A DNA stretch of 64,000 nt, from assembly GCF_057098645.1 (NCBI RefSeq), contig NZ_CM169472.1; one strand, given 5' to 3'. Below, in pieces: positions 19,818-56,402 of the stretch. The notes beneath the pieces are model-generated. The model saw only the letters and a list, made by a program, of their open reading frames with translations. It did no database searches and was not told where the DNA came from. The translations under genes and the position numbers were made by a program. Within the stretch, counting starts at the first letter, position 1. Each line of letters begins with the position of its first letter.

Positions 19818-19830
19818 ATCCCGACATCCC

Positions 19831-20343: not shown

Positions 20344-21020
20344 CACCGTATGCAAATCGAGTCGCTCAAGGGCGGCTTTTTTTGTGTCTGAAATCACCCA
20401 TATCCGTGCAGTATATAGGCCTGCCAGAAAAGCAGTTCAGTATTCTTCATTTTGTAGTCGATGGTCCCAAGTTTGCTCTGGCTGGAAGCTGCATCGTCCA
20501 CATTACGTGGGCAGGGTGGTTTCGCTATGCTACTTGAACGTTTTGACCATGTGGCTCAGGTAGCTAATATCAAAAGACGTCATTTTGTCTCCACGCCCAC
20601 CTTGGTGAACATTCAATAAATAGTTTCGGTCGAGAGCAGTTATGTAGGGCTAGCAGACGAGATGCGCAGACATCTTGTTGAAGACAATTATACTGACCAC
20701 CTGAGAACGCTATTCTACCGAATAATATTTATTATCTTGGCGAATAATGATGATTACCTGTGTAACTATGGTTTTATGCTGATGGGACCGGCAGTACAAT
20801 TTCTGTAGTGTACTCGCAATTTCAGATCTCTGGCGTTTATTCTGGTGCAAAGGAGGTATGTGATGAAAACTTTGCTACCATGCCATTAAATGCGACCAAT
20901 ATCGGATTATCCATCAGTTGCTTGTCGTAGATTTCATTGGTTATAAAAATGCAAGGTGTAAAAGATGAAATTTATAATTATTAGTTAAGTGGCTAGTTTT
21001 ATAGTAATTTAGACAATAGG

Positions 21021-23069
21021 ATGTATGGAAAAATGGAAAAAGTTTATGATACCACTAGAATTAGTAATCTTGCTAACGACCCGAAACAGTTTTGTTCTTT
21101 TTTTTGTGAGTACATAAAAAGAGATGATATTAGTATAGATATCGCCTTGGATGTGCTGAGAATATCTTCCATCTATTATAATAGATTTTCAGTTCAGACT
21201 GAAGTTGAGTATAACAATACATTCAAAAAATGTATTAATGAGCTAGTAAACTCATTTCCTGATAACATTGAACTAATTTCTGAGTTCGAGAGTCAATGTA
21301 AAATTATGCATGATATAAATAATTCTTTCTTTGCGGCTACAAAATGTGCTGGTATTTGGCGTGAAAATACAAAAAAATCACATGCATTAATACTTAATCT
21401 CATCATGTTTTGTGAGATGTTTTTATCATCATTATCATCCTTGGTTGTGGTCAATGATCCTAAAAAAATGAAGAGGATTTTTCCATTATTTATCGTTTCT
21501 GAAAATATTAATATTCATGCTGAACCTGATATCGAATATTTTCGAGTTATCGATAGGGCATTTGATGAGGTAGCCAATTACACCGGAAGAATATTTTCTT
21601 ATTTACGGACTCATGAGCCATTGAAACTAACTTCTTGTGTGAATAAACAAACCTTGCTTTCAATGGGAGGGTACCTTAATGAGTGGAATGTTTTTGACTC
21701 ATTAAGCAGAGTAAGAGACTTTTTCAGACTAAGTAGTGCAGTATTTACAAAATTGGATAATAACATTTACTCTCTTGAGGTTGATAGTTTTTGTTTATAC
21801 CGAGATTATGAGATTGCAAGAAATAGACTAATGATGAGAGCGTCACATCTATATAGCGAAGTTCATGAATTTAGTAACAAACATTTTCATCTAAATAGTT
21901 GGGTAAAGGATCATATGCCATCTTACTTAAATTCTGATGGCGTTTTTAGCTCATTTCATCTAAGCGAGTTGGAAAATATGTCTCCTGATGACCTTCATGA
22001 AGAATATGGGAATATATCATTATTTAATTGGGTGCACGCTTATCAATGTTTAGTCGAGTTATCTAAAGAAGAAATGAGCAAAAGATTTTCATCGACAAAA
22101 CCTATACCCCTACAGTTGGATCGCTGGCTGATCATAAAAAGCCGTGAGAGTTGGTTATCATTCTTTCAACGTAAGGGGATTGCAGCAGATGCAGCAAAAA
22201 AACTGATAGATTATTTTACCTTCAATTCAAAATCACATGATCTTAATGATTGCCCATTTATTCCCTGTATGGACGGTTTATGCTTAATGCCTGCATTCAT
22301 AGCAAATAGCTCAGTGACTCGCTCTCTAATGTCATTATTTGGTTCCAAAAAAATTTCTCAAGCAAGTAAAGGGCGATTTCATGAGCAACAATTTATAAAA
22401 CAAGTTCGTGATGCGGGGATTAAAGCTTCTCCAATTGATGCTCATGCTAATTATCAGTGCGATTGCGTGATTCTCCTGGATGATTGTTTGATTTTTACAG
22501 AACTAAAATCAAATGGTCAACCAATATATTATGGTAAGTACTATCAGCAAGTGTGTAACATCGTTGGAGATAGCTCATTAATACATGATCATAATAATAA
22601 ATTTATGCGTTCTTATTTTCAACAAATAAATCGAACTTCTGAACATTATCTTAATCATCTTGATGTGATCATTAAAGAATTCGAACTACCATCAACATGG
22701 CAACCCAAAGGTGTGTATAAGCTTATTGTTACTACAACTATGCTCGGTGGGAAATATCATGTGGATGATACATATGTAGCGGACAAATATGCATTATCTA
22801 GTTTTTTTCAACGAATACCTGGAGTGATATATCAAACAAATGAAAATGGAGAAATGGCGAAAAATATCATTGATGGGTTTGAGTGTTGCGAAGGGGAAAT
22901 CACTATCGATAAGTTTATAGATTATCTTTCCTCTTTGCCCGGTATTAATGCTGTACGTAAAAATATACAAAAATTAACTTATAGTGTTCGATTTAATGAA
23001 AAACTAGTCCATCACCCTTATTATGATTCTTGGGCTTTTGGCCCATATATTCGTAAGGGAAATGATTAG
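21021..23069 (+). CDS. Hypothetical 682-aa protein with a possible PD-(D/E)xK nuclease-like motif; orphan accessory gene
   Basis: Long AT-rich ORF; no housekeeping similarity recognised; QCDCVILLDDCLIFTELK segment resembles a PD-(D/E)xK core; strong terminator immediately downstream. Confidence 0.5.
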   Translation: MYGKMEKVYDTTRISNLANDPKQFCSFFCEYIKRDDISIDIALDVLRISSIYYNRFSVQTEVEYNNTFKKCINELVNSFPDNIELISEFESQCKIMHDINNSFFAATKCAGIWRENTKKSHALILNLIMFCEMFLSSLSSLVVVNDPKKMKRIFPLFIVSENINIHAEPDIEYFRVIDRAFDEVANYTGRIFSYLRTHEPLKLTSCVNKQTLLSMGGYLNEWNVFDSLSRVRDFFRLSSAVFTKLDNNIYSLEVDSFCLYRDYEIARNRLMMRASHLYSEVHEFSNKHFHLNSWVKDHMPSYLNSDGVFSSFHLSELENMSPDDLHEEYGNISLFNWVHAYQCLVELSKEEMSKRFSSTKPIPLQLDRWLIIKSRESWLSFFQRKGIAADAAKKLIDYFTFNSKSHDLNDCPFIPCMDGLCLMPAFIANSSVTRSLMSLFGSKKISQASKGRFHEQQFIKQVRDAGIKASPIDAHANYQCDCVILLDDCLIFTELKSNGQPIYYGKYYQQVCNIVGDSSLIHDHNNKFMRSYFQQINRTSEHYLNHLDVIIKEFELPSTWQPKGVYKLIVTTTMLGGKYHVDDTYVADKYALSSFFQRIPGVIYQTNENGEMAKNIIDGFECCEGEITIDKFIDYLSSLPGINAVRKNIQKLTYSVRFNEKLVHHPYYDSWAFGPYIRKGND

Positions 23070-23092
23070 AGCAATTTATTATATAGTCCATG

Positions 23093-23134
23093 TTATTCAC
23101 TGATTATATTATTGATAATATAATCAGTGAATAA
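23093..23134. terminator. Long perfect hairpin between the 682-aa gene and downstream minus-strand ORFs
   Basis: ttattcactgattatatta-ttga-taatataatcagtgaataa followed by a T7 run. Confidence 0.65.
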
Positions 23135-23691
23135 CTCTAATTTTTTTAATGTTGGGGGGTAGCCTGAAATTGAAATTGGTACTACGGAACGGTATGATCA
23201 TATCGCATCAAAATATCAAGGTAGTGATGATTTTCTACGCAACGATCCAGAAACGTGGATTTTATCATCACCATAAGCAATGGCAGCGACAACACCATCA
23301 ATTTCTATATCAAAGGTGGTGAAATGAATTAGAAAATTGTTTATTTAATCCATTAGCGATAAGTTTTATTGTTATTTAGCCGAGATATATTCCATTGAAA
23401 AAAGTAAATTGGCACTGATATTATATCAAATGGGAATAATCCTTTTGTAAATAAGCTGAGGAATGTGTTAATTCACATCCAGCGCCTTATAAACCGCATC
23501 AACCGGTTCTGAGTAAAAACTTACCTGAAACTTGGTAAACAACTCTGCCGGAACTGTTGGAATATCCATAGCCGAGGATATCGGCAACAGAACACGTTTT
23601 GCGCCGCTATCGAAGGCGAGTTGTAAACTAGCGGCAAGATCCTGCACTGATTATGTCAGCAATATTGAACATACTGCGATAGTTATCAACC

Positions 23692-24564
23692 TCACCCCCT
23701 AAAAACCTCTTTCCGATGCCACTCTACAAACACCTCATAAGGGTAATTTTTACGCACCTGCGGCAACGTAATAGTTTTCCCGTCAAAATCCCAGAATAAT
23801 CTCTCAACGATCCCTCCGCCGTTTACCGCATCTGATACCAGTACCCGCATATTTTCGTCCAGGCCAATCGATCCTTTATCAAAGGCTTTATGGTGAATTG
23901 CGCAAAGCGCCAGGCCATTAGGAATTTCACAAGGACCGCCGTGCTGTTTCCATTTTATATGCGCCGCTTCCAGCGCGACGGTGGTGTCGTCGTGGCGCAT
24001 ATTAAAGCCACATATCGCGCACTGGTAGTTATAAGCGCGTAATACATTTTTGCGAAATAACGGGTCGCGCTGTTTACGGATTTGCTGGAGATCAAAACCC
24101 AGCTCGTCAGCGATTTCTTCCTGAATACTCTCGGTGAAGTGCGCTTCGAGTATCTGTTGCGCCAGAGTATTGATGAGTTTTTTATTGCCGATTACCAGGG
24201 CGTAGTGCTGTTCATCGAAACCGCCTGCAACGTGGTATTCGTTCAGTTCCTTCACTGGCGGTTGTCGGCTGCTCCCTGCTGTTGAGCAACGCTCGGCATT
24301 GTGTAATTGCCAGAATCCGTCGCCTTGTAATCGCCAGAACGGCATATCAGGTCGGTACTGTGAACGCTGTGGCCCAAAACGTTCCAGTAAACTGTGCAGA
24401 GGTTCGTAGATTTCCGATCCATAATCGAAAAGGCGCGGATGTCCATTCAGGTATCCCGCTAATACGTATAGCAGTAACAATGGTTTATGCGGCGCGCGCT
24501 GTTCACCCTTGTGCCAAATTTTTATGTTGGCAATTGCCTGCTGTAGCGATTTACTGGAAGCCAT
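23692..24564 (-). CDS. HNH endonuclease-domain protein with an N-terminal domain of unknown function
   Basis: C-terminal HNH motif YNYQCAICGF...ALEAAHIKWKQHGGPCEIPNGLALCAIHHKAFD; start chosen at MASSKSLQQ (ATG 24562-24564). The ORF track allows an N-terminal extension to 24720 that overlaps the nanM-derived fragment. Confidence 0.7.
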   Translation of the reverse strand: MASSKSLQQAIANIKIWHKGEQRAPHKPLLLLYVLAGYLNGHPRLFDYGSEIYEPLHSLLERFGPQRSQYRPDMPFWRLQGDGFWQLHNAERCSTAGSSRQPPVKELNEYHVAGGFDEQHYALVIGNKKLINTLAQQILEAHFTESIQEEIADELGFDLQQIRKQRDPLFRKNVLRAYNYQCAICGFNMRHDDTTVALEAAHIKWKQHGGPCEIPNGLALCAIHHKAFDKGSIGLDENMRVLVSDAVNGGGIVERLFWDFDGKTITLPQVRKNYPYEVFVEWHRKEVFRG

Positions 24565-24641
24565 TGATATCCCAGGCAGTGAAATAATTGCAATCATGCT
24601 CGCAAATTTTCTGCTGTTCAAGCCTGCAAGTGAAGATCCAT

Positions 24642-24914
24642 TGCTGTGTTGAGGGATCAAAAGACAACAAAAACTTATTGAAGAAATAATCTTCTGCTTT
24701 TTTGTCGAAATAATAGGCATTGATCTTGTCTATAGCTGCTAAATATTCTCCAGCCTCGTTGAGATCTTCAAAATAGCCATTGAAGATGTTCTGGTTAACA
24801 CCGCCAGTAACATAAGCCTTGCCGCTGTGTACAAAAGTCACATTACCCGCCATGCCCATCGGCGCGTGCGACATCAATTTATTGTTTTATTCATTGTGAC
24901 TGTCTCCTGTCTAC
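24642..24914 (-). pseudogene. Rearranged nanM fragment (internal codons fused to the nanM 5' leader)
   Basis: About 240 bp nearly identical to nanM 57959-58200 (MSHAPMGMAG..FDPSTQQW) joined directly to about 30 bp matching the nanM RBS/leader region 58541-58573; lacks the first about 148 codons and the 3' part. Confidence 0.7.
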
Positions 24915-25103
24915 AAAGCTTTAACCTTCACCCGTATGAGGGAAGTTTTAAGTATGAGGCGAACCATAGCATATGCCTTTATACCTATTACACCATAAAG
25001 ATAGACAAGTTATGCCATAAACTACTTTTGTAATTTGAGTCACAAATCAGGGAAGTTTTATTTATCTTCCGTGAAAGTCTTAACTTTCACGGAGTGTTAG
25101 AAT

Positions 25104-26207
25104 TTACAAAGTTGCTGGCGTAAAGGCTCCGGTTTGTATTTCTTTAACCAGCTCACCCACGGTATATATTCTCCATCCTTCGACTTCGGCGGGAGTAAGG
25201 TTAACTGCAATTTTAAGGCCTGGCCATGCAGCTTCTACGGTTGCAATAATTTCATGTTCTGAGTTTTGAAGATCTAACCCAGGAACAGGAGGTTGAAAGC
25301 CTTTATGTTGCATCATATTAATATCACCATGCACTGATGGATCAGTCAGGTCATATATTTCATTCCAGGATTCTGCTTTTAATAACCCTTGTTGGGAACG
25401 TAAACGTTGAATGATAGCCATCTCAGCTTGGGTAACGAATATACCTTCGTGGAGGGGCTGTTTTCGATGGCAATCCTTGCACAGAACAAGAAGGTTTTCA
25501 TGGTGATTATCATATTTGATGCCATTTTTATGATGGACATGGCACAAGTTTTTGGCGGTTGATAAATTCACGCCACAATCATTACAAACATAATTGGCCT
25601 TTTCTCGTATTTCTTTAGATATTTCCTTCCAGTTTTCAACATACCCACTATTTGTTTTGTCATAGATACCCTTAGGCATATGACGAAAACAGGTACTATA
25701 ATCTGAAAAAAACTCATTTAATGAGAATGATTTAAAAATCTCTCTTTTTCGTTGTTTATCAATACTTCCTTTATAATTAAGTCGTTCGAGGCAATTCATA
25801 CATACCCGTAAATCAACATCCTGGCTCCGACCTGAACCATCATCAATTTCGAATAAACCATCTATGCGGTTAGTTGCATGATACCTTTCAAATCGATTTT
25901 TATGGCGCATTTCATCAAGAGTTCTGCACCAGGCAATATGAAAACGTTTTCCTTTTTCGCCATCTACGATAGCCGCATCATAACGCCCTGAATGGTCCCG
26001 AATATATAAAAGAACCTGGCGGCCATGATAAGAGATAAGCCCGCTACCAGGGTCAAGATCTTCGATACTAACTTCTTTACCCGTGGATAACTCAATATCT
26101 ATAGGATCAAAGTCAATAGGGGATTCATCCAGAAAAAAATCGACTCCTTCTGGTAACATTTTCTTCCCTAATTGAATAAGTTCTGAAAGGTCGATAGATA
26201 ATTTCAT
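25104..26207 (-). CDS. zorE: ZorE-like HNH endonuclease (Zorya type II)
   Basis: 367-aa ORF with HNH motif CNDCGVNLSTAKNLCHVHHKNG..NLLVLCKDCH; third gene of a MotA-like/MotB-like/HNH operon. Confidence 0.65.
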   Translation of the reverse strand: MKLSIDLSELIQLGKKMLPEGVDFFLDESPIDFDPIDIELSTGKEVSIEDLDPGSGLISYHGRQVLLYIRDHSGRYDAAIVDGEKGKRFHIAWCRTLDEMRHKNRFERYHATNRIDGLFEIDDGSGRSQDVDLRVCMNCLERLNYKGSIDKQRKREIFKSFSLNEFFSDYSTCFRHMPKGIYDKTNSGYVENWKEISKEIREKANYVCNDCGVNLSTAKNLCHVHHKNGIKYDNHHENLLVLCKDCHRKQPLHEGIFVTQAEMAIIQRLRSQQGLLKAESWNEIYDLTDPSVHGDINMMQHKGFQPPVPGLDLQNSEHEIIATVEAAWPGLKIAVNLTPAEVEGWRIYTVGELVKEIQTGAFTPATL

Positions 26208-26210
26208 CTC

Positions 26211-26918
26211 TTACTCCTGAATAATCTTTCTAATCTGCAACTCGGCATTTGTTACAACTTTGAAGGTGACACGACGAGAGCGATTAGGATCCTCCTTGCC
26301 GGTTTTATCAAGAATGGGATGTGCAGATGAATAACCTACTGCGGCAAATTTACTTTTAACCCATTGTTGGTGTGTCGCGATATTTTTTATGTCATAAACG
26401 TATTGTAATACTGCACGTGTACGACCTTGCGATAGTGCCATATTATTAAAATAAGCAATATCAGGATTCGTTGTTCCTGTCCAGTCAGTACTTGTGTGAC
26501 CTTCAATGCGGACTTCAGTAATATGTTCCTGATAATTATCTAGAACTTTTAGGTAGCGAGGAAAGAAATCGTCAAGAATGAGTTTAAACTTTGGTTTTAG
26601 CTCTGTGCTTCCTAAGCCAAATAAAACATCCGGTGATTTAAATCGAACCTCCAGAGTCTGTTTATCGATCTCTGCATCCCAGTCTTGTAAATCCTTTGCA
26701 AACTCAATATCCAGAGCATTATAAAGCTGTAACTGAGCATTCTCGTAGGCTACGGCAACTTCTTTAATTTTTTCTTTTTCAATACGTACGTAGTGCATAT
26801 AAGCAATAGATATGAACATAAAAACCATCATCAGCCCTGCCATTAGGTCTGACATGGATACCCAATGTTCATTATCTTGATCTTTTTTAGGTAATTGTTT
26901 CCCTATAATCTTATCCAT
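26211..26918 (-). CDS. zorB: ZorB-like MotB/OmpA-family protein (Zorya)
   Basis: 235 aa; N-terminal single TM helix with a preceding Asp (SMSDLMAGLMMVFMFISIAY); C-terminal OmpA-like peptidoglycan-binding region. Confidence 0.7.
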   Translation of the reverse strand: MDKIIGKQLPKKDQDNEHWVSMSDLMAGLMMVFMFISIAYMHYVRIEKEKIKEVAVAYENAQLQLYNALDIEFAKDLQDWDAEIDKQTLEVRFKSPDVLFGLGSTELKPKFKLILDDFFPRYLKVLDNYQEHITEVRIEGHTSTDWTGTTNPDIAYFNNMALSQGRTRAVLQYVYDIKNIATHQQWVKSKFAAVGYSSAHPILDKTGKEDPNRSRRVTFKVVTNAELQIRKIIQE

Positions 26919-26924
26919 GATCGA

Positions 26925-28577
26925 TTACCCGCGATGTTTATTAGCAGAAATTAATGCTTGTAACTGCCCCATAACTATTTGGTAATCTTTAATAAGTTTT
27001 TCATAGTTACCGACAAAACCTTTGCTGATTGAAAGCAGAGCATTACCTAATGATTGCATTTCACGGTTCATTTCACGTTCAGTTGCTTGCTCAAAAGCAT
27101 GTAACTGCTCGTTGATGGATAGAGCAAATTTTTCAATTGATTCTCTGACTTGAGAAGTCAGCCCTGCACTTGCCTTATCAAATGATGTCTGGATTGAATC
27201 AAACATATTATCGGCATTACTGGATAGTTGATGGTTAATCTTTTCACCAGTCTTACTGAACATATCAATCACATTCGTCGTATTTTGTTCCATATTTCTA
27301 TGCAATTCTTTCGAGTGCGACTCTAGTGATTTCAGGAATTCTTCACCACTTTGTTTCATTTCAGTAATTGTTTCACCTAACGTGCTGGTTAGGGTTTCGG
27401 AGGAATTGCTGACATCATGTGCCATCGAGGCAAATGCTTGTTGTGTTTGGGTAACCGATTGTCTGAATCCTTCGGTACCTTCATCCAGGGCAACGCGCAT
27501 TGAATCTGCATTAAGAAGTATTTGCTGGCTGGTTTGCTCAAGAGATGCACTAACATTTGCAGCTCCGGATTTCAGCAGTTCACCCACTTCAGCCATTTTG
27601 TTCTGTATTTCAGGTAATACGGTTGTAGCTTTATCGCGGATGGCGACAAAGGTTTCTAAATGGCGGGAGAGTTCGCTGATTTGATGTTGGTTCACCTGAA
27701 GCACTTCACGCAGTTCAGACATAGCCAGAGGAATTTCTTTACATTCTTCCCAAATCCCTGCAACCGCAGTTTTTGTTTCAACCAGGGACTCGACACTTTG
27801 TTGATATTGTTCTGACATCTGCTCAATTTGCGTTTTATAATTTCCCTGCCACTCAACAAGTTTTTTTACAGAGGCATCAAGAGCTTTAAAGTTTTCACCA
27901 AACTGTTCAGTTAAATTTTGATTAAAATCAATAATGACTTGTCGCAAAGCATCAATAATTTGTTCTGTAGCACCTTTTGCCATTAGATCTGCAAATTGTT
28001 CAAGTTGTTCCCAAAGCTTATTACTGAAATGAGTGTGATTAGCTAATTGTGCCTGCGAGGAATCGCTAATATCAGTACGTAGTAATTTTATTTGAGCAAT
28101 AAGAGAACCTTCACTATCACCGTTAATACCCGAGACTAATTTAGTCAGAGTCTGGTTCTGCTCTTTTAATTCATGATAGATATGTTCAGGTGTAACAGAT
28201 TCAGGGTTATTTTCTGCTAACGCACTTCGTTTATTGGCAAAAAAGAAAGCATCCATTCCATTAAATAAAATGGCAAAAAACATACCTACAATGCTTGTAA
28301 TGAATGCTGTTTTTAGGCCACCTAATAATACGGGGATGCTGGTATCAATACTTTCGGTATTAAAATTGAGTAAACCAATAATAATACCAATGAAAGTACC
28401 CAGAATACCTAATGCCCCCATTAAGGTTGGAGCATATTCTCTAAACTTACTATGTATATTTTTTTTGTCACACCACCACGCTGATAAAAATACGAATATA
28501 ACAGCCCAGATGAAAATATTGGTGATCAGTGTAGAGTCTATCGATTGAAACAACTGCTCAAAAAGCTGCGCTAACAT
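26925..28577 (-). CDS. zorA: ZorA-like MotA/ExbB-family membrane protein with long coiled-coil tail (Zorya)
   Basis: N-terminal TM helices (..LMGALGILGTFIGIIIGL.., ..LKTAFITSIVGMFFAILF..) followed by about 400 aa of Q/E-rich predicted coiled coil. Start chosen at MLAQLFEQ (ATG 28575-28577); the ORF track allows 28634. Confidence 0.7.
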   Translation of the reverse strand: MLAQLFEQLFQSIDSTLITNIFIWAVIFVFLSAWWCDKKNIHSKFREYAPTLMGALGILGTFIGIIIGLLNFNTESIDTSIPVLLGGLKTAFITSIVGMFFAILFNGMDAFFFANKRSALAENNPESVTPEHIYHELKEQNQTLTKLVSGINGDSEGSLIAQIKLLRTDISDSSQAQLANHTHFSNKLWEQLEQFADLMAKGATEQIIDALRQVIIDFNQNLTEQFGENFKALDASVKKLVEWQGNYKTQIEQMSEQYQQSVESLVETKTAVAGIWEECKEIPLAMSELREVLQVNQHQISELSRHLETFVAIRDKATTVLPEIQNKMAEVGELLKSGAANVSASLEQTSQQILLNADSMRVALDEGTEGFRQSVTQTQQAFASMAHDVSNSSETLTSTLGETITEMKQSGEEFLKSLESHSKELHRNMEQNTTNVIDMFSKTGEKINHQLSSNADNMFDSIQTSFDKASAGLTSQVRESIEKFALSINEQLHAFEQATEREMNREMQSLGNALLSISKGFVGNYEKLIKDYQIVMGQLQALISANKHRG

Positions 28578-28788
28578 TTTGATACCTGTGTAAATAATGG
28601 ATAGTTGTAATCGTTTAAAAAATAAACAAAACACACATAATTTATATGGTTAAGTTCGGTGTAGCGCTCATGATTGTAACAAGTTTTTTCGAGATATAAA
28701 TGATTTGTCTCATTTTTAGCGAGTTCATCGGGTTGAGCTTTTTTATGATGATAGTAACCTGTTACGAATTGTATCAAAGGAAGGCAGG

Positions 28789-38582: not shown

Positions 38583-38615
38583 GGCCTTCATGATATCTTT
38601 AAGGCCCTCTTTTTT
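38583..38615 (+). terminator. Intrinsic terminator between the two large operons
   Basis: ggcctt-catgatatcttt-aaggcc hairpin followed by ctcttttttt; a second hairpin at 38470-38496. Confidence 0.55.
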
Positions 38616-38685
38616 ATCGCAGTGTGCCGCGCCACATTTTTCAGGATGACGTTACCGCCACTGCCCCAAATAGACAGAAAAACCG

Positions 38686-41544: not shown

Positions 41545-41546
41545 TC

Positions 41547-46457: not shown

Positions 46458-49400
46458 TGCTGCCGTCCGTTGTCAGTCGGCAGGTCGCCGACAGCGTTGC
46501 CGCCTTTTTACGGGCGGCGTTCCCGCTAAACAGCCCGCTGTTTAACGGTGAGAATAACGATAATGTCTCAATGCTGGAGCAATTTCTGGCCCAGCCCGAA
46601 ACGCTGCTGAAAGGACCATACCTTTCCGCCCAGTTGCCGTTTCGTAAAAGTGACTTACCACTGAATTTCTTCCCTAATCTGACGCTGCCGTTCCCGCCGC
46701 ACGCGCATCAGGCCCGGGCATTTCAGCGTCTGGGAAGCGACGCGCCACAGCCGACACTGGTCGCTACCGGTACCGGCTCCGGTAAAACAGAATGCTTTAT
46801 GTTCCCGCTGCTCAACCACTGCGCGGGCGCGTCACATGCCGGGGTTAAAGCGATTATCATCTACCCGATGAACGCCCTGGCAACCGATCAGGCCAGCCGT
46901 TTCGCCAAAACCATCGCCAGCGATCCACAACTGCATGGCAAGGTGACCGTCGGCTTGTTTGTCGGCGACAGCGAAATCGAACCCAGCAAGAAAATGTCGG
47001 CAGAAAAGGTCATTACCTGCAAGCACACGCTGCGCGAAAGCCCGCCGGACATCCTGTTGACCAACTACAAAATGCTCGACTACCTGCTGATGCGCCCTGG
47101 CGATCAGCCGCTCTGGCGTTACAACCAGCCCGGTTCATTGCGTTACCTGGTCGTGGATGAATTGCATACGTTTGATGGCGCGCAAGGGTCGGATCTGGCC
47201 TGTCTGGTGCGACGTCTGAAGCATCACATAGGTGTGGATAACCAACGATTCGCCTGCGTCGGGACATCAGCTACCGTCGGCGACGAACTGGGGCAACTGC
47301 TCGATTACGCAAAAACAATCTTTGACCAGCCGTTTACCGATGACGCCGTTATTCGCGAAGATCGCTACACGGCAGCGGAGTACTTGCAGGATTATGCCAT
47401 TGCGTACAGTCAGTATCCGGGGCCGGAGGCCGCTTCGGCCCTGGACCCGCAGAGTTACTCTACCCCGGTAGCGTATCTCAACGGGCAAATCCCTTTGTGG
47501 TTCCCCGACAGCGATTTGCAACTCCCGGACGATCTGGAGAGCGACGACGGGCGTGAAAAGCGTATTGCGCTGGGGTCACTGTTACGCCGCCACAGCGTGA
47601 TGCATGTCTTACTCCATGATCTGCAAGGCGGGATCCTCTCTGAGCGAGAGTGTCTGGAAAATCTCCAGGTCATGCTGGCAGAAAGCGCCGACCATGCCCG
47701 ACGCGTGCTGCAAAGCATTCTGGCGCTGATCGCGCAGGCACGTCTCGAAGTACCGGAAACGGAACACGATCGTCAAAAACGTCTCCAGGCGAAGAAAGCG
47801 CGTCCGGTGCTGCCGTTTGTGCAACTGCGCTCCCAGTTGTGGCTTCGTGAGATGCGTCGTCTGGTCGCCAGCGTGGCGAAAACGCCGCGACTGGTGTTTG
47901 CCGATGATGTGGCGGTGGAAGACCGCGAACACTATTTGCCGGTTATCCACTGCCGTGACTGCCATGCAACCGGCTGGGCCAGCCTGCGTCATGGGCAAAG
48001 CGTTCAGCTGGAAACAGACCTCGACGGCATTTATCGCCAGTTCTTTGAAAAAGGGCGCTCCATCGTCCTCGCTTTCCCGGATAATAACGAAAAAGCGGTC
48101 AGTGGCGCACACCAGAAACTGTGTCCTACCTGTCTGAAACTTAACCGACAGTCCAGCGTCCAGTGTGGACATTGCGGTCATACGGAACTGTTGCAGGTAC
48201 TGATCCCGGATATGCTCAAAGAGCGTAAGGACGAGCTGGAGTTTGCTAATGAATGCCCGTACTGCAACAGCAAACAGGGGATTTCGATCCTGGGGTCACG
48301 GGCTGCCAGTCTGTCGGCGGTGATGATTCACCAGCTTTATGGCAGCCAGTTCAACGAACATAAAAAGCTGATTACGTTTTCTGACTCGGTACAAGACGCC
48401 GCGCATCGTGCCAGCTTCTTTACTGCCCGAACCTGGCCGCTGATGATTCGTGGGCAAATCGCCAGTGTTCTTGGCGAAAAAGAGACATTACCGCTGGATG
48501 CGTTCGCGGCGCGTGTTTGCCAACAAACGCGTGAACGTTCACCGGACGATGCTCATTTTGCAGCGAACTTCATCGCACCAAATATGCAGTGGCTGAATGA
48601 TTATCAGACGCTGAAAAATGAAGGCAAACTGGCGGAGAACTCCGATCTGCCGGAGCTGGTTTCCCTGCGCCTCGACTGGGAGGTGTACAGCGAATTTACC
48701 CTGCGCGCGCGTATCGGACGTACGCTGGAAGCCACCGGTTATGCCGTTGCCGGAGTGGATAAAGATCGCTTTAATCCGGCAATTACCGCCCTGCATCAAC
48801 AGCTTTGTGAAGAGCTGGGTGATGAGATGTCCGGTGTGAGCGTCGAGCAGGTAGCGCACCTGGCGCTGGGGGTTATCTGGTATCAACGCCAGGCCGGGGC
48901 CGTTATGCATCCGGCGTTCGAAAGTTATCGCCGTGATGGCACGACCTTTATGATGACGCAAAAAGAGCGTACATCGCGCTATATGCCTTCTATCGGTCCG
49001 AAAACGCGTAAACCGGCTTATGCGTCGTTTGAAAAAATTAATGGTTTCCATCGCCTGATTGGCGCGAAGTCTAACCCCAGTTGGTATCAGCATTGGATCA
49101 ATCGCACGCTGAGTAACGGCAATAATCTGTTTATCAGTAGCGTTGCGGAAACAGTGTTACGACGCCTGTTTACGGCGTTGAAAATAGCCGGAGTAGTAAA
49201 AGATTTTGACACCAAAGGGCGTGAAGCCTGGGGACTGGTGCCTTCGGCGCTGGTGGTGAGCCGTGACGTCGTTCAGCTTAATTGCTCATGTTGCCGTGAG
49301 GTTGTCCGGGCTCCGGCCGATCAAGGCTGGCAGTGGCGTAATGCGCCTTGTCTCTCTTTACGTTGTGAAGGTCGTTACCTAGAAGTCGACAATATGGCGA

Positions 49401-52400
49401 CCTGGCGTTGGGAGAACATGGACATCGCGCGCGTGCAGGGCGCAGAACACACGGGGCTGCTTAGCCGTGAAGATCGCGAAGCCACCGAAAAATCGTTCTA
49501 CCGCGGCAACCAACCGTGGAATATCAACCTGTTGTCGGCAACACCGACGCTGGAGATGGGTATTGACGTTGGGGATCTTTCCACCGTTTTACTCTGTTCT
49601 GTCCCACCTGCTCAGGCCAACTACTTGCAACGTATTGGTCGCGCCGGTCGTAAAGATGGTAACGCGTTAAACATTACCGTGGCAGAAGGGAACCCGCACG
49701 ATCAGTTTTTCTTTGAAGAACCACTGGAGATGATGCAGGGCCAGGTGCAGGCTCCTGGCGTCTTCCTCAATGCAACGGCTATTCTCGAACGCCAGCTGGC
49801 AGCTTTTTGTATGGATAACTGGGTGAAAACCGGTGTACCAGAATCCGCTATCTGTAAAAACGTCAAACAGATGCTGGATGAGCTGGAGTTCGGGCGTAAA
49901 TCGGGTTTTCCGTATAACTTACTGCGATATATCGAACAGCATCATGCGGAGATTGCTGCGCAATTTACGGCAATCTTCCCCGATCTTGCCGCAGAAACTC
50001 GCCAACAGCTGTTGTCTTATCTTCAGGGCGCGCCAGGACAACGCTCGCTGGTGCAGCGTATCGAAGAAGCGTTAAAACTGCTGGTGGAAGATCGCAAATC
50101 TTTGCGCTCACGCATCGATAAACTCAAGCGCAGTATCGATAAACTGGAGAACGCGCCGCGCGATCAAAACTTTGATAGCGATATGCGCGAGTTAACTTCG
50201 GAACGGCAGGCGCTGATGGCGCTGGTCAATCAAATCAACAATAAGCAAACGCTGAATTTCCTCACGGATGAAGGTCTGCTGCCTAACTACGCCTTCCCGG
50301 AAGCCGGTATTACGTTACGTTCTGTGCTCTGGCGGCGTAAAGAAGGCGGGGAAGCACGTGAATATCAAAACACCACTTTCGAATATGAACGCCCGGCATC
50401 AACGGCGCTGGCTGAGCTGGCTCCGCTGAATAATTTCTATGCCGGTGGGCATAAAGTTGAAATTGAGCAGATAGACCTGAAGGTCTCTGAGCCGGAGAAC
50501 TGGCGTATCTGTAGCCACTGTAACTACAGCGAAAATATCGACCAGACGGGCGACCAGCATAAATATTGCCCGAAATGTGGCACACCGGGGTGGGCCGATG
50601 CCGGACAAAAAACCACGCTGCTGAAACTTCGCCAGGTTTATGCCCGCGCCAGCGCACGTGATAGCCAGATCAGCGACGAGAGCGACAGCCGTGAACCTGC
50701 TTTCTTCCAGCGTCAGCTATTGGTTAGTTTCGAAAAAGAAGATGTATCGGCGGCATACGCGATTGAGGAAGGCGAAGTTCCGTTTGGTTTTGAATTTTTA
50801 AGCAAAGTCACCCTGCGGGATATCAACTTCGGCAAAATGGCGGATGATGCCAATGAGTTGATGATTGCCGGAGAAGCGAAGAAGCGAACCGGGTTTAAAG
50901 TTTGCCTCGGGTGCGGCATGGTGCAGCGTCCTCGCGATCATGAACCACGTCATGATTTGAGCTGCAAATATCGCACGGAACCGGAAAAGGCGAAGTTCGA
51001 AGATTATCTCTACCTCTATCGCCAGCTGGAGTCAGAAGCGTTGCGTATTCTGCTCCCGGTAAGCAGTTACAGTAATGACCGTGTCGTGGAGGCTTCTCTT
51101 GGGGCGGCGATCCAGCTCGGTCTTAAACATTACTTCAAGGGGAATGTCGATCACCTGAAAGGCGTTGTGTACCGCGAGCCGGAAAATGAAGGCGAATCCT
51201 GGCGGCAGTATCTGGTGATTTACGATACCGTCCCGGGGGGGACTGGTTCTCTTAAAGAACTGATGCGCACTCCCGACAATTTGCTGAAATTACTTGAACT
51301 GGCCTATCAGGCAATAGTGGAATGCAGTTGCAACAATGATACGCATAAAGATGGTTGTTATCGTTGCGTTTACGCTTACCGTGACCGTGGGCGCATGAAG
51401 TATGTCTCCCGCGATCAGGCGCGTCTCTTGCTGGCGAAAATTTTGCAGGCAAGAGATTCGATACGGGTAATTGATTCCATCAAAAACATTTCCCTCGAAG
51501 CCATGATGGGCAGTGAGCTGGAAAAACGGTTTATTAGCTGCCTGCAAGAAAATAAAAACCTGATTGTCAGTCGCAGTTACGCGCATCAGGGCGCTGGGTG
51601 GATTATTAACACCCGCAGCGAACCGATGATGAGCTGGCATCTTAAAGCTCAGGTGGATTTAGGCGCTAAAGAGGCGGTGGGGATCCCTTGTCGCCCGGAT
51701 TACGTGCTATATCCGCTTATGCAGTCTGATGCCATTAAACCGGTGGTTATTTTCCTTGATGGCTTTGCGTTCCACAAAAATAGCGTCGCAGAGGATGTGC
51801 AAAAACGCCAGGCGATTCGGGATAGCGGTAATTTCTGGGTGTGGACAGTCACGTGGGCCGATCTCAAAGAGCCTGGGCTTAAACATGTTCAGGATGTCCT
51901 GGGACTTGGGCATAACCCGGATATGAAACAGCCTAAGTTTTATAACCTGTTTCATGATACCAACTTTGCGGCCCTTGAAGCGTCGTTCCGGGAACGCAAC
52001 AGTTTTGCACTGCTGCTGGATTATCTCGCCGATCCGGGCGGAAGAACGCAGTTATGGCAGAGAATGGCTGCTGCACATGCCTGGGTGTGGTTGGATGTGA
52101 AGAAGTCACAGGACGCGGGAACGAAACAAAAGTATGCCTATGAAATGCAGGAAAACGCGCCAGCCTGGCGGCTAGCAGAGCTTTTGCCAGACGAACCGTT
52201 TGTCTTTGGTGGTTTACTCGATAGCTGTAACTCATCGCAGCAATTTATTGAGCTGGCTTCGGTGTTGCCACAACAAGCCATTAAACCGACGACCAGCGTC
52301 GCACAAATGCGCAGCTGGCTGCGTTTGCATATCTGTTTTGACGATCGCTATACGCAGGATGACGGTTATGAAGCGGGACTCAATGGCTTCTGGCGACTGG

Positions 52401-52798
52401 TAAACCTGTTACAGTTCCTGCCGGATATGACCTTTACCAGCCGTAAAGCCGTGCATTTACCGCAGGAAAGCGTTGACACTAAAGTTTCGGCAACGCCAGA
52501 GGCAGTACCAGAGACTGATGAGAGTTGGGCTGAGATTATTGAGTTTGGCTTATTAAGCGCTGAAGAGATCGCGTTGCTTCAGTCTCATTCTCTCTCTGCG
52601 CCGACTCTCGGCTACGAATTGCAAAATGATGAAGGTGAAATTATTGCGGAAGCCGATCTCGCCTGGCCATCACAAAAATGGGCATTGATTATTGATAATC
52701 AAGAATTTATTCCATTATTCACAACCAGGGGTTGGCACGTTGCATTCGGGCCAATTGACGAAAATACATTGCAACATCTGTCCGGAGGTGACAAATGA
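46457..52798 (+). CDS. Second giant DEAD/DEAH-box helicase with C-terminal Cys-rich (DUF1998-like) region; DrmA/DrmB-fusion-like or DruE-like
   Basis: 2113 aa; motif I ATGTGSGKTECF, motif II VVDELHTFDG, motif VI QRIGRAGRKDG at about aa 1060, zinc-ribbon-like CSHCNYS..CPKCG and CSCNN..CYRC; ATG overlaps the MTase stop (TGATG). Confidence 0.75.
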   Translation: MLPSVVSRQVADSVAAFLRAAFPLNSPLFNGENNDNVSMLEQFLAQPETLLKGPYLSAQLPFRKSDLPLNFFPNLTLPFPPHAHQARAFQRLGSDAPQPTLVATGTGSGKTECFMFPLLNHCAGASHAGVKAIIIYPMNALATDQASRFAKTIASDPQLHGKVTVGLFVGDSEIEPSKKMSAEKVITCKHTLRESPPDILLTNYKMLDYLLMRPGDQPLWRYNQPGSLRYLVVDELHTFDGAQGSDLACLVRRLKHHIGVDNQRFACVGTSATVGDELGQLLDYAKTIFDQPFTDDAVIREDRYTAAEYLQDYAIAYSQYPGPEAASALDPQSYSTPVAYLNGQIPLWFPDSDLQLPDDLESDDGREKRIALGSLLRRHSVMHVLLHDLQGGILSERECLENLQVMLAESADHARRVLQSILALIAQARLEVPETEHDRQKRLQAKKARPVLPFVQLRSQLWLREMRRLVASVAKTPRLVFADDVAVEDREHYLPVIHCRDCHATGWASLRHGQSVQLETDLDGIYRQFFEKGRSIVLAFPDNNEKAVSGAHQKLCPTCLKLNRQSSVQCGHCGHTELLQVLIPDMLKERKDELEFANECPYCNSKQGISILGSRAASLSAVMIHQLYGSQFNEHKKLITFSDSVQDAAHRASFFTARTWPLMIRGQIASVLGEKETLPLDAFAARVCQQTRERSPDDAHFAANFIAPNMQWLNDYQTLKNEGKLAENSDLPELVSLRLDWEVYSEFTLRARIGRTLEATGYAVAGVDKDRFNPAITALHQQLCEELGDEMSGVSVEQVAHLALGVIWYQRQAGAVMHPAFESYRRDGTTFMMTQKERTSRYMPSIGPKTRKPAYASFEKINGFHRLIGAKSNPSWYQHWINRTLSNGNNLFISSVAETVLRRLFTALKIAGVVKDFDTKGREAWGLVPSALVVSRDVVQLNCSCCREVVRAPADQGWQWRNAPCLSLRCEGRYLEVDNMATWRWENMDIARVQGAEHTGLLSREDREATEKSFYRGNQPWNINLLSATPTLEMGIDVGDLSTVLLCSVPPAQANYLQRIGRAGRKDGNALNITVAEGNPHDQFFFEEPLEMMQGQVQAPGVFLNATAILERQLAAFCMDNWVKTGVPESAICKNVKQMLDELEFGRKSGFPYNLLRYIEQHHAEIAAQFTAIFPDLAAETRQQLLSYLQGAPGQRSLVQRIEEALKLLVEDRKSLRSRIDKLKRSIDKLENAPRDQNFDSDMRELTSERQALMALVNQINNKQTLNFLTDEGLLPNYAFPEAGITLRSVLWRRKEGGEAREYQNTTFEYERPASTALAELAPLNNFYAGGHKVEIEQIDLKVSEPENWRICSHCNYSENIDQTGDQHKYCPKCGTPGWADAGQKTTLLKLRQVYARASARDSQISDESDSREPAFFQRQLLVSFEKEDVSAAYAIEEGEVPFGFEFLSKVTLRDINFGKMADDANELMIAGEAKKRTGFKVCLGCGMVQRPRDHEPRHDLSCKYRTEPEKAKFEDYLYLYRQLESEALRILLPVSSYSNDRVVEASLGAAIQLGLKHYFKGNVDHLKGVVYREPENEGESWRQYLVIYDTVPGGTGSLKELMRTPDNLLKLLELAYQAIVECSCNNDTHKDGCYRCVYAYRDRGRMKYVSRDQARLLLAKILQARDSIRVIDSIKNISLEAMMGSELEKRFISCLQENKNLIVSRSYAHQGAGWIINTRSEPMMSWHLKAQVDLGAKEAVGIPCRPDYVLYPLMQSDAIKPVVIFLDGFAFHKNSVAEDVQKRQAIRDSGNFWVWTVTWADLKEPGLKHVQDVLGLGHNPDMKQPKFYNLFHDTNFAALEASFRERNSFALLLDYLADPGGRTQLWQRMAAAHAWVWLDVKKSQDAGTKQKYAYEMQENAPAWRLAELLPDEPFVFGGLLDSCNSSQQFIELASVLPQQAIKPTTSVAQMRSWLRLHICFDDRYTQDDGYEAGLNGFWRLVNLLQFLPDMTFTSRKAVHLPQESVDTKVSATPEAVPETDESWAEIIEFGLLSAEEIALLQSHSLSAPTLGYELQNDEGEIIAEADLAWPSQKWALIIDNQEFIPLFTTRGWHVAFGPIDENTLQHLSGGDK

Positions 52799-54909
52799 CG
52801 GTGCAAACGCCCAAGGTGGCACTTTCTGATGGTTTTCTGGGCGCATTCGCGCGGATCCCAAAGGCACAGCAAAAAAAGGTGCAGGAATTCATCTCCAAAT
52901 TCCGTCAGGACCCGACCAGTAATGGACTTAACTATGAAAAGATCCACGATGCGCGCAGTAAAAATGTCCATTCGGTGCGAATCGATCAAACTTATCGCGG
53001 CATTGTTCTGAAACCTGAACAGGGTGCCCTGTATATGCTGATGTGGGTGGATAAACACGACGAAGCATACGACTGGGCGCGGCGGCATGATTGTTCGATT
53101 CACCCGGTTACCGGCGCGATTCAGGTCATTGATATTAGCTATATCAAACCGGCACCGGAAGCGGTGGTTGATAAACCGAAACTCTTCGCGGCTTACAGCG
53201 CGGAACAGATTCTGGCCCTGGGCGTGCCGCCTGTCTTTATTGATCAGGTGATGGCGCTTACCGATGAAGCCGGGCTTAATCAACTTGAAAGCATAATGCC
53301 AGCAGAAGCCTGGGAACCTCTGCACTGGCTGGCAGAAGGGCTGGATTACCAGGAAGTGCTGGAAGAGTTTAACGATCATCATGATGAGCCTGTTGATACC
53401 AACGACTTTATGGAGGCGATTGAACGAAGTAAACGTCGCTTCCATGTCGTTGAAAATGAACAGGAGCTGTTGCAGATGCTTAATGCGCCTTTAGAAAAAT
53501 GGCGTGTATTTCTGCATCCGAGCCAGCGAAAACTGGTGGAGTCGCCCGCTAATGGTCCGGTACGAGTACTGGGCGGTGCAGGTACAGGGAAAACGGTTGT
53601 TGCGATGCACCGTGCGCGGTGGTTATCTCAGCGTCTGGCAGATAAACCCGGTAAGAAGGTACTTTTCACGACCTTTACGCGTAACCTGGCGGCAGATATT
53701 CGCGCTAATCTCCAGCGGTTGTGTACGCGAGAAGAGATGGCGCGTATTGACGTCGTTAACATTGATGCCTGGATGAGCGACCAACTAAAACGCCACGGTT
53801 ATGATTTCCGCGTGGTATACGACAGCGATGAAGGGCGACGCAAATGCTGGAACTATGCCTTGCAGCAGGCACCTGCCGAACTGGGGCTACCTGACAATTT
53901 CTATGCTGAAGAGTGGCAACGCGTTGTCCAGCCAAATGCGGTTTACACCCGGGAGGAATACCTCAAAGTCAGCCGGGTTGGACGTGGTACAGCGTTATCC
54001 CGTATTCAACGGGCGAAAATCTGGCCAGTCTTTGAAGAATTCAGAGCACAAATGGCGCGTGCCAAACTGCGCGAAATGGGCGATGCCATGCATGAGGCTA
54101 TTGTTCTGTTTAAAGAAAAACAGGTTCAACTACCTTATAGCAGTATTGTGGTCGATGAAGCTCAAGATATCGGTGCCCCGGCATTTACTCTTATTCGCAG
54201 CCTGGTTCCCGAGTCGCCCAACGATCTGTTTATTGTCGGGGATGGGCATCAGCGTATTTATCGCAATAAGGTCGTTCTTGGTCAGTGTGGTATTAACGTC
54301 CGTGGTCGTCGCAGTAAAAAATTGAAGATTAACTATCGGACCACAGAAGAGACGCGTCAATTTGCTGTTGGGCTGTTAACTGGTGTGAAGGTTGATAACC
54401 TCGATGGCGAAGCGGATACCAGTAATGATTATTTGTCATTACTGCACGGGGAAAAGCCCATGATTACGCATGCGGCAGATTTCAAAGAAGAGGCTGCAAC
54501 GCTCGTCAAGCAAATTCAGGCATTGCTGGCGAATCAGGTTCGTTCTCAGGATATCTGCATTACTGCGCGTACTAAACATGCTTGTGACCGCTACGCATCA
54601 GCACTGAATGACGCCGGAATTGAGACATTTAATTTAGGCAATGATAGCGGTGACAGCGATGCACGCCCTGGCGTGCGGGTTGCAACGATGCACCGTATTA
54701 AAGGGCTTGAGTTCCAGTATGTGTTCCTGGTGGGGATTAACGAAGGCGTTGTGCCGGAAATAAAAGCATTAGCATCCGATGATCCCGTTGAACAGCGTGA
54801 TGCATTATTTAATGAGCGCGCGTTACTGCATGTGGCTGCAACCCGTGCCGTAAAAGGGCTGTTTGTTTCATCATCTGGTGTCCCTAGTCCGCTATTAGTG
54901 GCTGACTGA
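52795..54909 (+). CDS. UvrD/Rep-like superfamily 1 helicase with about 230-aa N-terminal domain of unknown function
   Basis: 704 aa; Walker A GGAGTGKT, motif II VVDEAQD, C-terminal TMHRIKGLEFQYVFL; start overlaps the upstream stop (ATGA). Confidence 0.75.
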   Translation: MTVQTPKVALSDGFLGAFARIPKAQQKKVQEFISKFRQDPTSNGLNYEKIHDARSKNVHSVRIDQTYRGIVLKPEQGALYMLMWVDKHDEAYDWARRHDCSIHPVTGAIQVIDISYIKPAPEAVVDKPKLFAAYSAEQILALGVPPVFIDQVMALTDEAGLNQLESIMPAEAWEPLHWLAEGLDYQEVLEEFNDHHDEPVDTNDFMEAIERSKRRFHVVENEQELLQMLNAPLEKWRVFLHPSQRKLVESPANGPVRVLGGAGTGKTVVAMHRARWLSQRLADKPGKKVLFTTFTRNLAADIRANLQRLCTREEMARIDVVNIDAWMSDQLKRHGYDFRVVYDSDEGRRKCWNYALQQAPAELGLPDNFYAEEWQRVVQPNAVYTREEYLKVSRVGRGTALSRIQRAKIWPVFEEFRAQMARAKLREMGDAMHEAIVLFKEKQVQLPYSSIVVDEAQDIGAPAFTLIRSLVPESPNDLFIVGDGHQRIYRNKVVLGQCGINVRGRRSKKLKINYRTTEETRQFAVGLLTGVKVDNLDGEADTSNDYLSLLHGEKPMITHAADFKEEAATLVKQIQALLANQVRSQDICITARTKHACDRYASALNDAGIETFNLGNDSGDSDARPGVRVATMHRIKGLEFQYVFLVGINEGVVPEIKALASDDPVEQRDALFNERALLHVAATRAVKGLFVSSSGVPSPLLVAD

Positions 54910-54925
54910 TAATATGTCCAAAACA

Positions 54926-54951
54926 GACCAGGAGCCGAAACGCTCCTGGTC
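54926..54951 (+). terminator. Stem-loop after the UvrD-like gene (weak terminator candidate)
   Basis: gaccaggagc-cgaaac-gctcctggtc hairpin 17 bp after the stop; no strong U-tract. Confidence 0.35.
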
Positions 54952-55861
54952 TATATAACCGTTCTGGCAACTGGCGATATTTATATTGCTTAGCTCCCAA
55001 CAGCCAGACAATATCAACTTAGAAATTATATTCGCTTATGCGGTTTGCATATTGCACAGTACAACCTGTTTTCTCTATATCTAACGTAACGTCAGGATGT
55101 GGATGATTTTTGGATGGGGTGACACACTGGACAAATATAGCTGGCACGAAAAGGCTGGCATTTCCAGCTGACCAATAGTCTCTGGAACCATGATGATGAT
55201 AAAATAAATATCTTAAGTTTTAAACGTATGATGCCAGGATTACCAGAATTATAAACGAATATATTAGTTCTTTTCTATTTGTTCAGGAGGGGTATAAAAA
55301 TTGCAATTGTTAATAGTATCGTCAGGACGATAAAAAGATAATCATGACAAAGGAAATTGAACTAAAATGATTGACATTTTACAGGTGGTTTGTCAGTGAT
55401 TTCTTGTTATTCATAATTTATTTTCCGTAAAAAATAGTAAGGTGATCACCTGAATAAAGGTAATCTCATATTTTGATGAGTATAGTGATTTTTTATTTCT
55501 CTGGTGAGGAATGAAGGAAATATCAATGGTAAGGAACGTCAGAGAATCAGGGAAAATTAAGGTCCCTCAGAAACACAATGCCGTTCACTTAAGCGGGGCG
55601 GCACTGTGTTTCACAGGATAACGGGTTTTTGATATCTTAACCGCCCTCGCCCTTGATGGTCGGGGGCGTTTTGTTATGAACACCACTTCCAGAGCCCCCG
55701 CAGATGCTCCAGTCGTTTCGGGATAGTCCCCGGTGACGCCGTGTTTCCCAGCACTATCATTTCTGTCACGATAAACTGGAACGCGAACTTAAAGCTGATC
55801 TCTGACGCCGCTTTTGTTGCCTCACGCCGTATCGCTCCGCTGGTAGGCGCGGTCATGGCAT

Positions 55862-56349
55862 TCAGTAGAATGTGATTCCCAGATTCATTAACGCCACCAG
55901 ACGCATGACGGGGTAGGCGCTCTGCCGCTCAGTGGATGTGTTGGCAGAGCCATAATATTCACGCAGCTCGGGTTCATCAGGTGTCCTGAACTGTGCGCCA
56001 TCAATGGCAAAAAGTTGCAGGCCGTGCCAGTCATCCTGCAGGTAACGTTCCGCGCCCCATGTCTGTGCGGTCTGGCGGAAGAGCCATTCCACCGGGGCGG
56101 CCCCCACGCGCTGACGCGCCTGGGTGACAGCGCTGCGGGCGCCAGCAGGTTCATCCCCGCTTCGCCATCCACGCTCAGGTTAAGACGACGAACGGTCGCA
56201 TGAGCAGAAAGCGTCAGGAAGTGCTGTATCCACTCGGTGGGAAGGTGCTCTGCAAACAGTTGCGTAGAGGGTGGTGGCATAAGCGGATGGTCACTGAAAG
56301 TGGTATAAGAAAATGGCCCCTTGTTGTGGAAGTCGTTATAGTGCCGCAC
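55862..56349 (-). pseudogene. IS4-family DDE transposase remnant (frameshifted fragments)
   Basis: Two overlapping short frames; ..WLFRQTAQTWGAERYLQDDWHGLQLFAIDGAQFRTPDEPEL.. has the layout of the IS4-family N-terminal catalytic region; no intact ORF or terminal inverted repeats found. Confidence 0.4.
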
Positions 56350-56402
56350 GCCGGAGGAGTTAAAAGCGCTGATGGATGCGAATAAATCAAATTAATGAAC
56401 GC

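Follow-up and report, generated by a model that had tools for sequence, protein, structure and literature searches.

Gene content and probable layered origin of the anti-phage defence island between leuX and nanS in Escherichia coli

In contig NZ_CM169472.1 of the NCBI RefSeq assembly GCF_057098645.1, the chromosomal site between the tRNA gene leuX and nanS of Escherichia coli is occupied by an island of defence-type genes. The window analysed here is a stretch of 64,000 nucleotides of this contig. It is a segment of the E. coli chromosome, and the gene order across it runs from lptF/lptG, yjgR, ahr and leuX to nanS-nanM-nanC-fimB-fimE. The leuX gene (5923–6007) encodes tRNA-Leu(CAA), and its 3' end (5984–6007) represents the left attachment site (attL) of a P4-like satellite. 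The right attachment site (attR, 20321–20343, plus strand) repeats the 3' end of leuX in degenerate form, as a direct repeat of attL; its sequence, GTTTGAGTCCGGCCTTCG-CACCA, differs from the attL copy by one mismatch and one deletion. This site forms the left limit of the island, and megablast alignments to island-carrying genomes begin precisely at position 20321. On the other side, homology to island-less genomes returns at 56348/56351 or at 56400, just short of nanS (56403–57410, minus strand). The restart (56351–56402, plus strand) consists of the remaining 3' part of a gene for an HNH endonuclease; this gene is intact in the avian pathogenic E. coli (APEC) strain E14033.

The interval from attR to nanS (20321–56350) contains only defence-type genes and scars of mobile elements, namely 11 intact genes and three scars. 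An earlier sequence-only reading of the stretch had proposed a stacked defence island starting at 20344, which is accurate as attR ends at 20343, with a nuclease, helicase, methyltransferase or MotAB-like signature in almost every open reading frame (ORF). Indeed, a defence-type signature was found in all of the 11 intact genes. The order of the components is orf682, an enzyme with a sulfur-binding domain (SBD) and an HNH domain, a nanM fragment, Zorya type II, then Druantia type III, ARMADA type II and an IS4 remnant, so that three named systems and two solitary nucleases are arranged back to back. An AT-rich segment is present at the left edge as had been proposed (GC content 0.32–0.40, 20.3–23.1 kb), and so is the remnant of an IS4-family transposase at the right (about 55553–56299); the nanM fragment (24637–24914), however, does not belong to the left edge and lies 4.3 kb inside. 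An Rfam scan of the region 19800–57000 yielded no RNA family that reached its gathering threshold.

The Zorya operon is located on the minus strand and shows the gene order zorA-zorB-zorE with gaps of 3–6 nt. It comprises zorA2 (26925–28577), zorB2 (26211–26918) and zorE (25104–26207). ZorA2 matches the model NF041792 over its full length (residues 1–550; 1140 bits, cut-off 700) and the PADLOC model ZorA2 with 1003 bits. ZorB2 (NF041787, 444 bits, cut-off 400) and the HNH nuclease ZorE (NF041791, 696 bits, cut-off 600) also match the PADLOC models ZorB2 and ZorE2, respectively. With ZorA2, ZorB2 and a ZorE directly downstream of zorAB, all of the sequence features of a Zorya type II system are present. 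The Druantia operon diverges from the Zorya operon and consists of two plus-strand genes with overlapping ORFs, druH (28789–32148) followed by druE (32139–38462; RefSeq start 32148), which is the composition of Druantia type III. The PADLOC models DruH3 (2555 bits) and DruE3 (2182 bits) were both matched over the full length, and the NCBIfam family STY4851/ECs_5259 was found in this operon (987 bits, cut-off 150). Given that DruE matches DruE3 over its whole length and is 99.9 % identical to its O157:H7 counterpart, it would contain a DUF1998 and, at the C-terminus, tandem PLD-like nuclease domains. The mechanisms of both systems have been described (PMC13192584); in Zorya II, according to the literature, the HNH nuclease ZorE receives a signal from the ZorAB membrane motor.

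Four large plus-strand genes, armA to armD, form the ARMADA type II operon (38686–54909). The first gene, armA (38686–41544), encodes a SNF2/BrxHII-like helicase of 952 aa, and armB (41547–46457) a PglX/type IIG-like N6-adenine methyltransferase of 1,636 aa with an NPPW motif. They are followed by armC (46457–52798) for a YprA-family helicase-nuclease of 2,113 aa and armD (52795–54909) for a UvrD/GajB-like helicase of 704 aa. The genes are closely spaced, with a gap of 2 nt between armA and armB, no gap between armB and armC and an overlap of 4 nt between armC and armD. Their succession, a BrxHII/SNF2-like helicase, a PglX-like methyltransferase, a YprA-like helicase and a GajB-like helicase, follows the strict order of ARMADA II. 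ArmC shows the domains of a YprA protein: DEAD (84–278), Helicase_C (993–1066) and the MrfA/DUF1998 zinc-binding MZB domain (PF09369, about 1549–1638). Furthermore, all eight residues published as essential are found at identical positions, i.e. K136 (GKT) and D236 (DEAH) in ArmA, G605 (GxG) and N971 (NPPW) in ArmB, K110 (GKT) and D234 (DELH) in ArmC, and K266 (GKT) and D454 (DEAQ) in ArmD. Gene order, the domains identified and these eight positions are the same in the ARMADA type II systems of E. coli NCTC 12900 and ATCC 8739, and no substantive difference is evident. That all four constitute one named system had been missed in the sequence-only reading.

ARMADA was defined in a preprint about YprA helicases, according to which defence depends on each of the four genes as well as on particular Walker and NPPW residues and is non-abortive (10.1101/2025.09.15.676423). 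ARMADA II is described as possessing a Vsr-type PD-(D/E)xK nuclease at the C-terminus of ArmC and a RelE-like N-terminus of ArmD. In the proteins of the window, no Pfam match was obtained for ArmC past residue 1640 and no significant one for residues 1–240 of ArmD. Residues 2021–2096 of ArmC weakly resemble ZorE in its C-terminal part (PADLOC E value 5.8e-9; NCBIfam E value 3e-4), and this extreme C-terminus could be a domain common to two systems of one island.

A type IIG restriction-modification (R-M) enzyme or a class 1 DISARM system with unrelated helicases in place of one system is a highly improbable description of 38686–54909. It is favoured by the top PADLOC match of ArmB, REase_MTase_IIG with 931 bits, by the label RM_type_IIG which DefenseFinder gave in 2023 to the ArmB orthologue, and by partial matches of ArmA to DrmD and of ArmB to DrmMI. 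Also, in class 1 DISARM (DrmD, DrmMI, DrmA, DrmB, DrmC), as in the window, one operon combines a SNF2 helicase with an N6-adenine methyltransferase and a helicase that contains DUF1998. However, the arm genes are spaced as a single operon, the DrmD score of ArmA (350 bits) is below the cut-off of 610, and neither a split DrmA/DrmB pair nor the PLD protein DrmC is present. Instead, the 2,113-aa ArmC is a fusion of helicase and DUF1998 with a C-terminal non-PLD nuclease region, and an additional UvrD-type helicase is encoded. Class 1 DISARM was therefore rejected on account of the low DrmD score, the fused helicase and DUF1998 and the lack of a PLD gene in the cluster. In addition, deletion of each of the four arm genes abolishes defence, as reported in the preprint (10.1101/2025.09.15.676423).

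Anti-phage activity of ARMADA has been published for the orthologues of O157:H7 and ATCC 8739. From the literature, ARMADA II would confer direct, non-abortive protection that needs the four proteins, including the methyltransferase motif of ArmB, and Zorya II, Druantia III as well as ARMADA II would act additively or synergistically. The armB gene is intact in the window, and the O157:H7 allele is 94.5 % identical to it. In the otherwise 99.96 % identical island of the O145 strain RM9872, a 2-bp deletion (CT) within CTGCTCTTC, corresponding to 45150–45157 of the window, shifts the frame of the methyltransferase gene, and ARMADA may thus have been naturally inactivated in some members of the O145:H28 lineage. 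Downstream of armD the sequence reveals a GC-rich hairpin (54927–54953, plus strand), probably the terminator of the operon, and then an AT-rich non-coding spacer up to about 55550.

To the left of the three systems the SBD-HNH enzyme is encoded on the minus strand (23692–24564). This protein of 290 aa is an EcoWI-like, phosphorothioate-dependent restriction endonuclease and matches NF045808 with 438 bits at a cut-off of 180. Residues 5–140 correspond to the sulfur-binding domain of ScoMcrA (5ZMO) and residues 169–250 to the HNH domain of TagI (6GHS). An N-terminal sulfur-binding domain combined with a C-terminal HNH domain is characteristic of the EcoWI/SprMcrA-type endonucleases. EcoWI, whose type has been characterised biochemically (PMC7461809), shares this architecture and, at 33.4 kDa, is of comparable size. 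From the literature, the enzyme would cut incoming phosphorothioate-modified DNA. In all inspected genomes that lack the Zorya-Druantia-ARMADA trio the gene adjoins nanS; it is intact in strain 2824 and in APEC E14033 and present as a frameshifted fragment in K-12. In K-12 BW25113 (positions 4181–5894 of comparison locus L009) this fragment lies beside ythB and nanS and is preceded by the yjhR helicase pseudogene.

The leuX-proximal gene of the island, orf682 (21021–23069, plus strand), encodes an uncharacterised protein of 682 aa (678 aa if the second ATG at 21033 is used). With a GC content of 0.33 it is AT-rich. The protein consists of a helical N-terminal region of about 440 aa and a C-terminal NERD/PD-(D/E)xK nuclease domain, as seen from a conserved motif and from structure. 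No match was found in Pfam, PADLOC, NCBIfam or PHROGs, and the nuclease assignment is drawn from motif conservation and structure. About 223 relatives were detected in 1.84 billion representative proteins, most of them full length with 600–700 aa. In an alignment of 57 sequences the residues D477, E490, K492 and Q531 (678-aa numbering) are invariant and constitute the PD-(D/E)xK signature. The AlphaFold2 model is confident (pLDDT, the predicted value of the local distance difference test, 90.9; predicted template modelling score, pTM, 0.90), and a Foldseek search against AFDB50 retrieved a full-length family labelled as NERD-domain proteins from Enterobacterales and Firmicutes. The closest known proteins are NERD-domain PD-(D/E)xK proteins and restriction-type folds (Upx, the FokI cleavage domain, Shedu SduA and Hna). 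From these nucleases orf682 differs in its helical N-terminal region, which has no counterpart among solved structures, and its family is contained in none of the defence-system libraries searched.

It is possible, but only tentatively proposed, that orf682 is a stand-alone anti-phage nuclease in which the helical N-terminal region acts as a sensor or regulatory part controlling the NERD/PD-(D/E)xK nuclease. This reading is suggested by the location next to leuX in the E. coli hotspot with the highest density of defence genes, by the AT-richness and by the patchy distribution of the gene. It is also suggested by the neighbourhood of distant homologues, one of which adjoins a Cap4 nuclease and an R-M system of type I; another lies within an integrase element together with genes for KAP-NTPase, Mrr and PIN proteins. 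In Izhakiella a homologue was found as a solitary insertion amid metabolic genes. These contexts are compatible with a single-gene defence nuclease and do not prove it. A literature search by the RefSeq accessions of orf682 and of the SBD-HNH protein returned no paper, and orf682 is the sole component of the island outside the published literature and the defence-system libraries. Directly after its stop codon a near-perfect palindrome of 44 bp (23092–23135) is located, probably a bidirectional terminator. Beside this palindrome lies a small pseudogene fragment (about 23469–23648) which is annotated in O145.

The extent of the block containing the three named systems becomes visible by comparison with APEC E14033 (comparison locus L003). 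Window 20321–24637 corresponds to positions 3976–8293 of this locus with 99.1 % identity, and window 56351–60093 to positions 8963–12710. In between, 31.7 kb of the window (24638–56350) substitute 669 bp that hold most of the HNH endonuclease gene. The block has the nanM fragment at its left end, the Zorya, Druantia and ARMADA operons in between and the IS4 remnant at its right end. The nanM fragment is a minus-strand pseudogene between the SBD-HNH gene and zorE, in which an internal piece of nanM is joined to the start of the gene via a 337-bp deletion. Its part 24637–24881 is 91.8 % identical to the resident sequence at 57957–58201, and the 36 bp of the start codon region (24879–24914) are 100 % identical to 58539–58574. 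The fragment carries about 17 substitutions that are missing in three E. coli nanM alleles, and it diverges from these alleles by about 8 %. There are hints in these sequences that the block may have been assembled beside nanM in a lineage unsampled among 100,044 species-representative genomes. The IS4-family transposase remnant is located on the minus strand, is shortened and frameshifted and shows 93–94 % identity to annotated IS4-family transposases; in RefSeq it is annotated in O145 as a frameshifted transposase-domain pseudogene. The proposal that such seams point to modular replacement is supported, the nanM fragment being an internal seam.

The distribution of the island in 5,426 complete E. 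coli genomes was determined by megablast. Window 20000–44900 is covered to 80 % or more in 494 of them and window 38500–60000 to the same extent in 442, i.e. in about 8–9 %. The carriers belong mainly to O157:H7 and O145:H28, and the flank nanS-nanM-nanC was found in almost every genome. An interval present in only 442–494 of the genomes, with at least four alternative contents at the same site, is accessory and not part of the conserved core. The slot of APEC E14033 harbours just orf682, the SBD-HNH gene and the HNH gene. In K-12 it is filled with KpLE2 genes ending in the yjhR helicase pseudogene and the frameshifted SBD-HNH fragment, and tblastn gave no match between yjhR and ArmD or other island proteins. 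Strain 2824 (positions 8896–18310 of comparison locus L002) possesses a SNF2-related protein, a DNA methyltransferase and a DEAD/DEAH helicase of 1,126 aa. Its SNF2 protein is 24 % identical to ArmA, and the trio could be another DISARM/ARMADA-like system. Such a comparison had been suggested along with the proposal of a variable defence hotspot, and the differing cargo of K-12, strain 2824 and APEC E14033 bears this out; the site is the published hotspot #37.

Taken together, the region is very probably an immobilised composite anti-phage defence island of at least three layers at the leuX–nanS hotspot, identical with O-island 172 and situated in hotspot #37. The oldest layer would be a resident pair beside nanS, made up of the SBD-HNH enzyme and, in this lineage, orf682. 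As a second layer, the 31.7-kb block of nanM fragment, Zorya II, Druantia III, ARMADA II and IS4 remnant would have replaced the HNH gene that separated the SBD-HNH gene from nanS. Finally, the P4-like satellite with its R-M cargo would have entered leuX and thereby displaced the island from the tRNA gene by 14 kb. The late arrival of the satellite is deduced from O145:H28, where the island directly abuts an intact leuX and the satellite is absent.

That the whole 36 kb are one mobile element gained in a single acquisition is unlikely. The complete arrangement from 20321 to nanS occurs with 99.3–100 % identity in O145:H28 and assorted commensal strains, and there it now travels or persists as a unit. 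However, orf682 and the SBD-HNH gene exist at the same site without the block in APEC E14033, the block exists without orf682 in O157:H7, and the SBD-HNH gene adjoins nanS in genomes with unrelated cargo. Neither an integrase nor an attachment site nor terminal repeats of such an element were found, and the GC contents of the modules differ by 20 points. The profiling of the GC content per module, another suggestion of the sequence-only reading, shows a stepwise increase from 0.33 (orf682) over 0.38–0.39 (Zorya and DruH) and 0.49 (DruE) to 0.50–0.53 (ARMADA), which fits a mosaic origin. Still less probable, to the point of being negligible, is that the neighbouring satellite carries the island as cargo and that both move together. 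The two are immediate neighbours, defence cargo is known from P4-like satellites, and an R-M pair is present in this one. But attR closes the satellite before the island begins, O145:H28 contains the island at leuX without any satellite, and O157:H7 possesses a 98 % identical satellite at the same attachment site as a separate alignment block. The position outside attL-attR and the presence in the satellite-less O145:H28 led to the rejection of this explanation.

Several points limit the picture of a composite, layered island. The order of acquisition was derived from a comparison of five genomes instead of a phylogeny and is not proven. The donor of the nanM fragment was not found: for a 22-mer spanning five substitutions specific to the fragment, the 100,044 species-representative genomes contained no exact match, a result that is uninformative rather than negative owing to the strict exact matching. 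Around the 31.7-kb block no repeats of at least 11 nt (terminal repeat or target-site duplication) and no further leuX-like attachment site were detected, and the block is regarded as immobilised. Moreover, orf682 is a putative defence gene. The armB frameshift of the sister strain O145 RM9872 indicates that the system can be inactivated, and the activity of the alleles in the window is a predicted one. There is no evidence that contradicts the identification of the island.

The island has already been described and experimentally tested in preprints of 2025–2026, including the architecture of a satellite plus an immobilised island. One of them presents it as O-island 172 of enterohaemorrhagic E. 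coli (EHEC) O157:H7 EDL933 (z5894–z5902) and includes the O145:H28 version (bioRxiv 10.1101/2025.09.22.677730). Li et al. report the Zorya-Druantia-ARMADA trio for 426 genomes out of 3,792, belonging mainly to O157:H7, O55:H7 and O145:H28, and name armB as the variable gene. Composites at tRNA-Leu in which an active P4-like element abuts an immobilised ARMADA island, flanked by ahr on one side and a "cell-wall-related operon" on the other, are described in the ARMADA preprint (10.1101/2025.09.15.676423), and this is the architecture of the window. Hotspot #37 extends from nanS to yjgB at tRNA-Leu-CAA and is occupied in 462 of 475 genomes; it contains 31 types of defence systems (Hochhauser et al. 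2023, PMC10121019). Its flanks (yjgB/ahr with tRNA-Leu-CAA, and nanS) are those of the window, and its occupancy is near-universal; some genomes carry P4-type satellites there, and in most of them no mobile element is detectable. The catalogue was compiled with tools of the 2022 era; in its supplement the block of one strain, E. coli S43, was filed under the flanks uxuA-nanM instead of hotspot #37, and its ArmB was labelled RM_type_IIG (PMC10121019).

As already published, the island largely explains the resistance of EHEC O157:H7 and O145:H28 to many phages, which matters for phage therapy and biocontrol, and it is a clear example of the growth of a defence island via successive insertions at a tRNA gene. 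Added here are the breakpoints, at the level of single bases, of the 31.7-kb block, which replaced the HNH gene and ends in a scar of foreign nanM on one side and of IS4 on the other, and the EcoWI-like enzyme beside nanS in the inspected genomes without the trio. A further addition is the well-modelled, uncharacterised NERD nuclease of orf682 as a candidate single-gene defence.

The adjacent P4-like satellite is integrated into leuX (5984–20343, plus strand). It encodes an integrase (6160–7446), an Icd-like gene and an alpha primase (17452–19785). Its R-M cargo (7912–10021), which had been noticed in the sequence-only reading, is confirmed by a Dcm-type methyltransferase (8768–10021) and an adjoining ORF of 272 aa, for which the annotation of near-identical satellites in O157:H7 gives a type II restriction endonuclease. 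An IS21 insertion (13835–16253) with istA (13835–15481) and istB (15255–16253) lies inside the satellite; because of this insertion the O157:H7 satellites cover just 78 % of the query, with 98.3 % identity. At the right end of the satellite, before attR, a direct repeat of 120 nt (19831–19950 and 20012–20131) with 83 % identity and a spacing of 181 nt was observed. On the other side of nanS, the nanC-fimB intergenic region contains an IS5-family insertion of 1.2 kb (60094–61288) with a transposase gene (60162–61142; NF033581, 367 bits), which is missing in K-12, APEC E14033 and strain 2824. This intergenic region regulates fimB, and type 1 fimbrial switching might be affected by the insertion.

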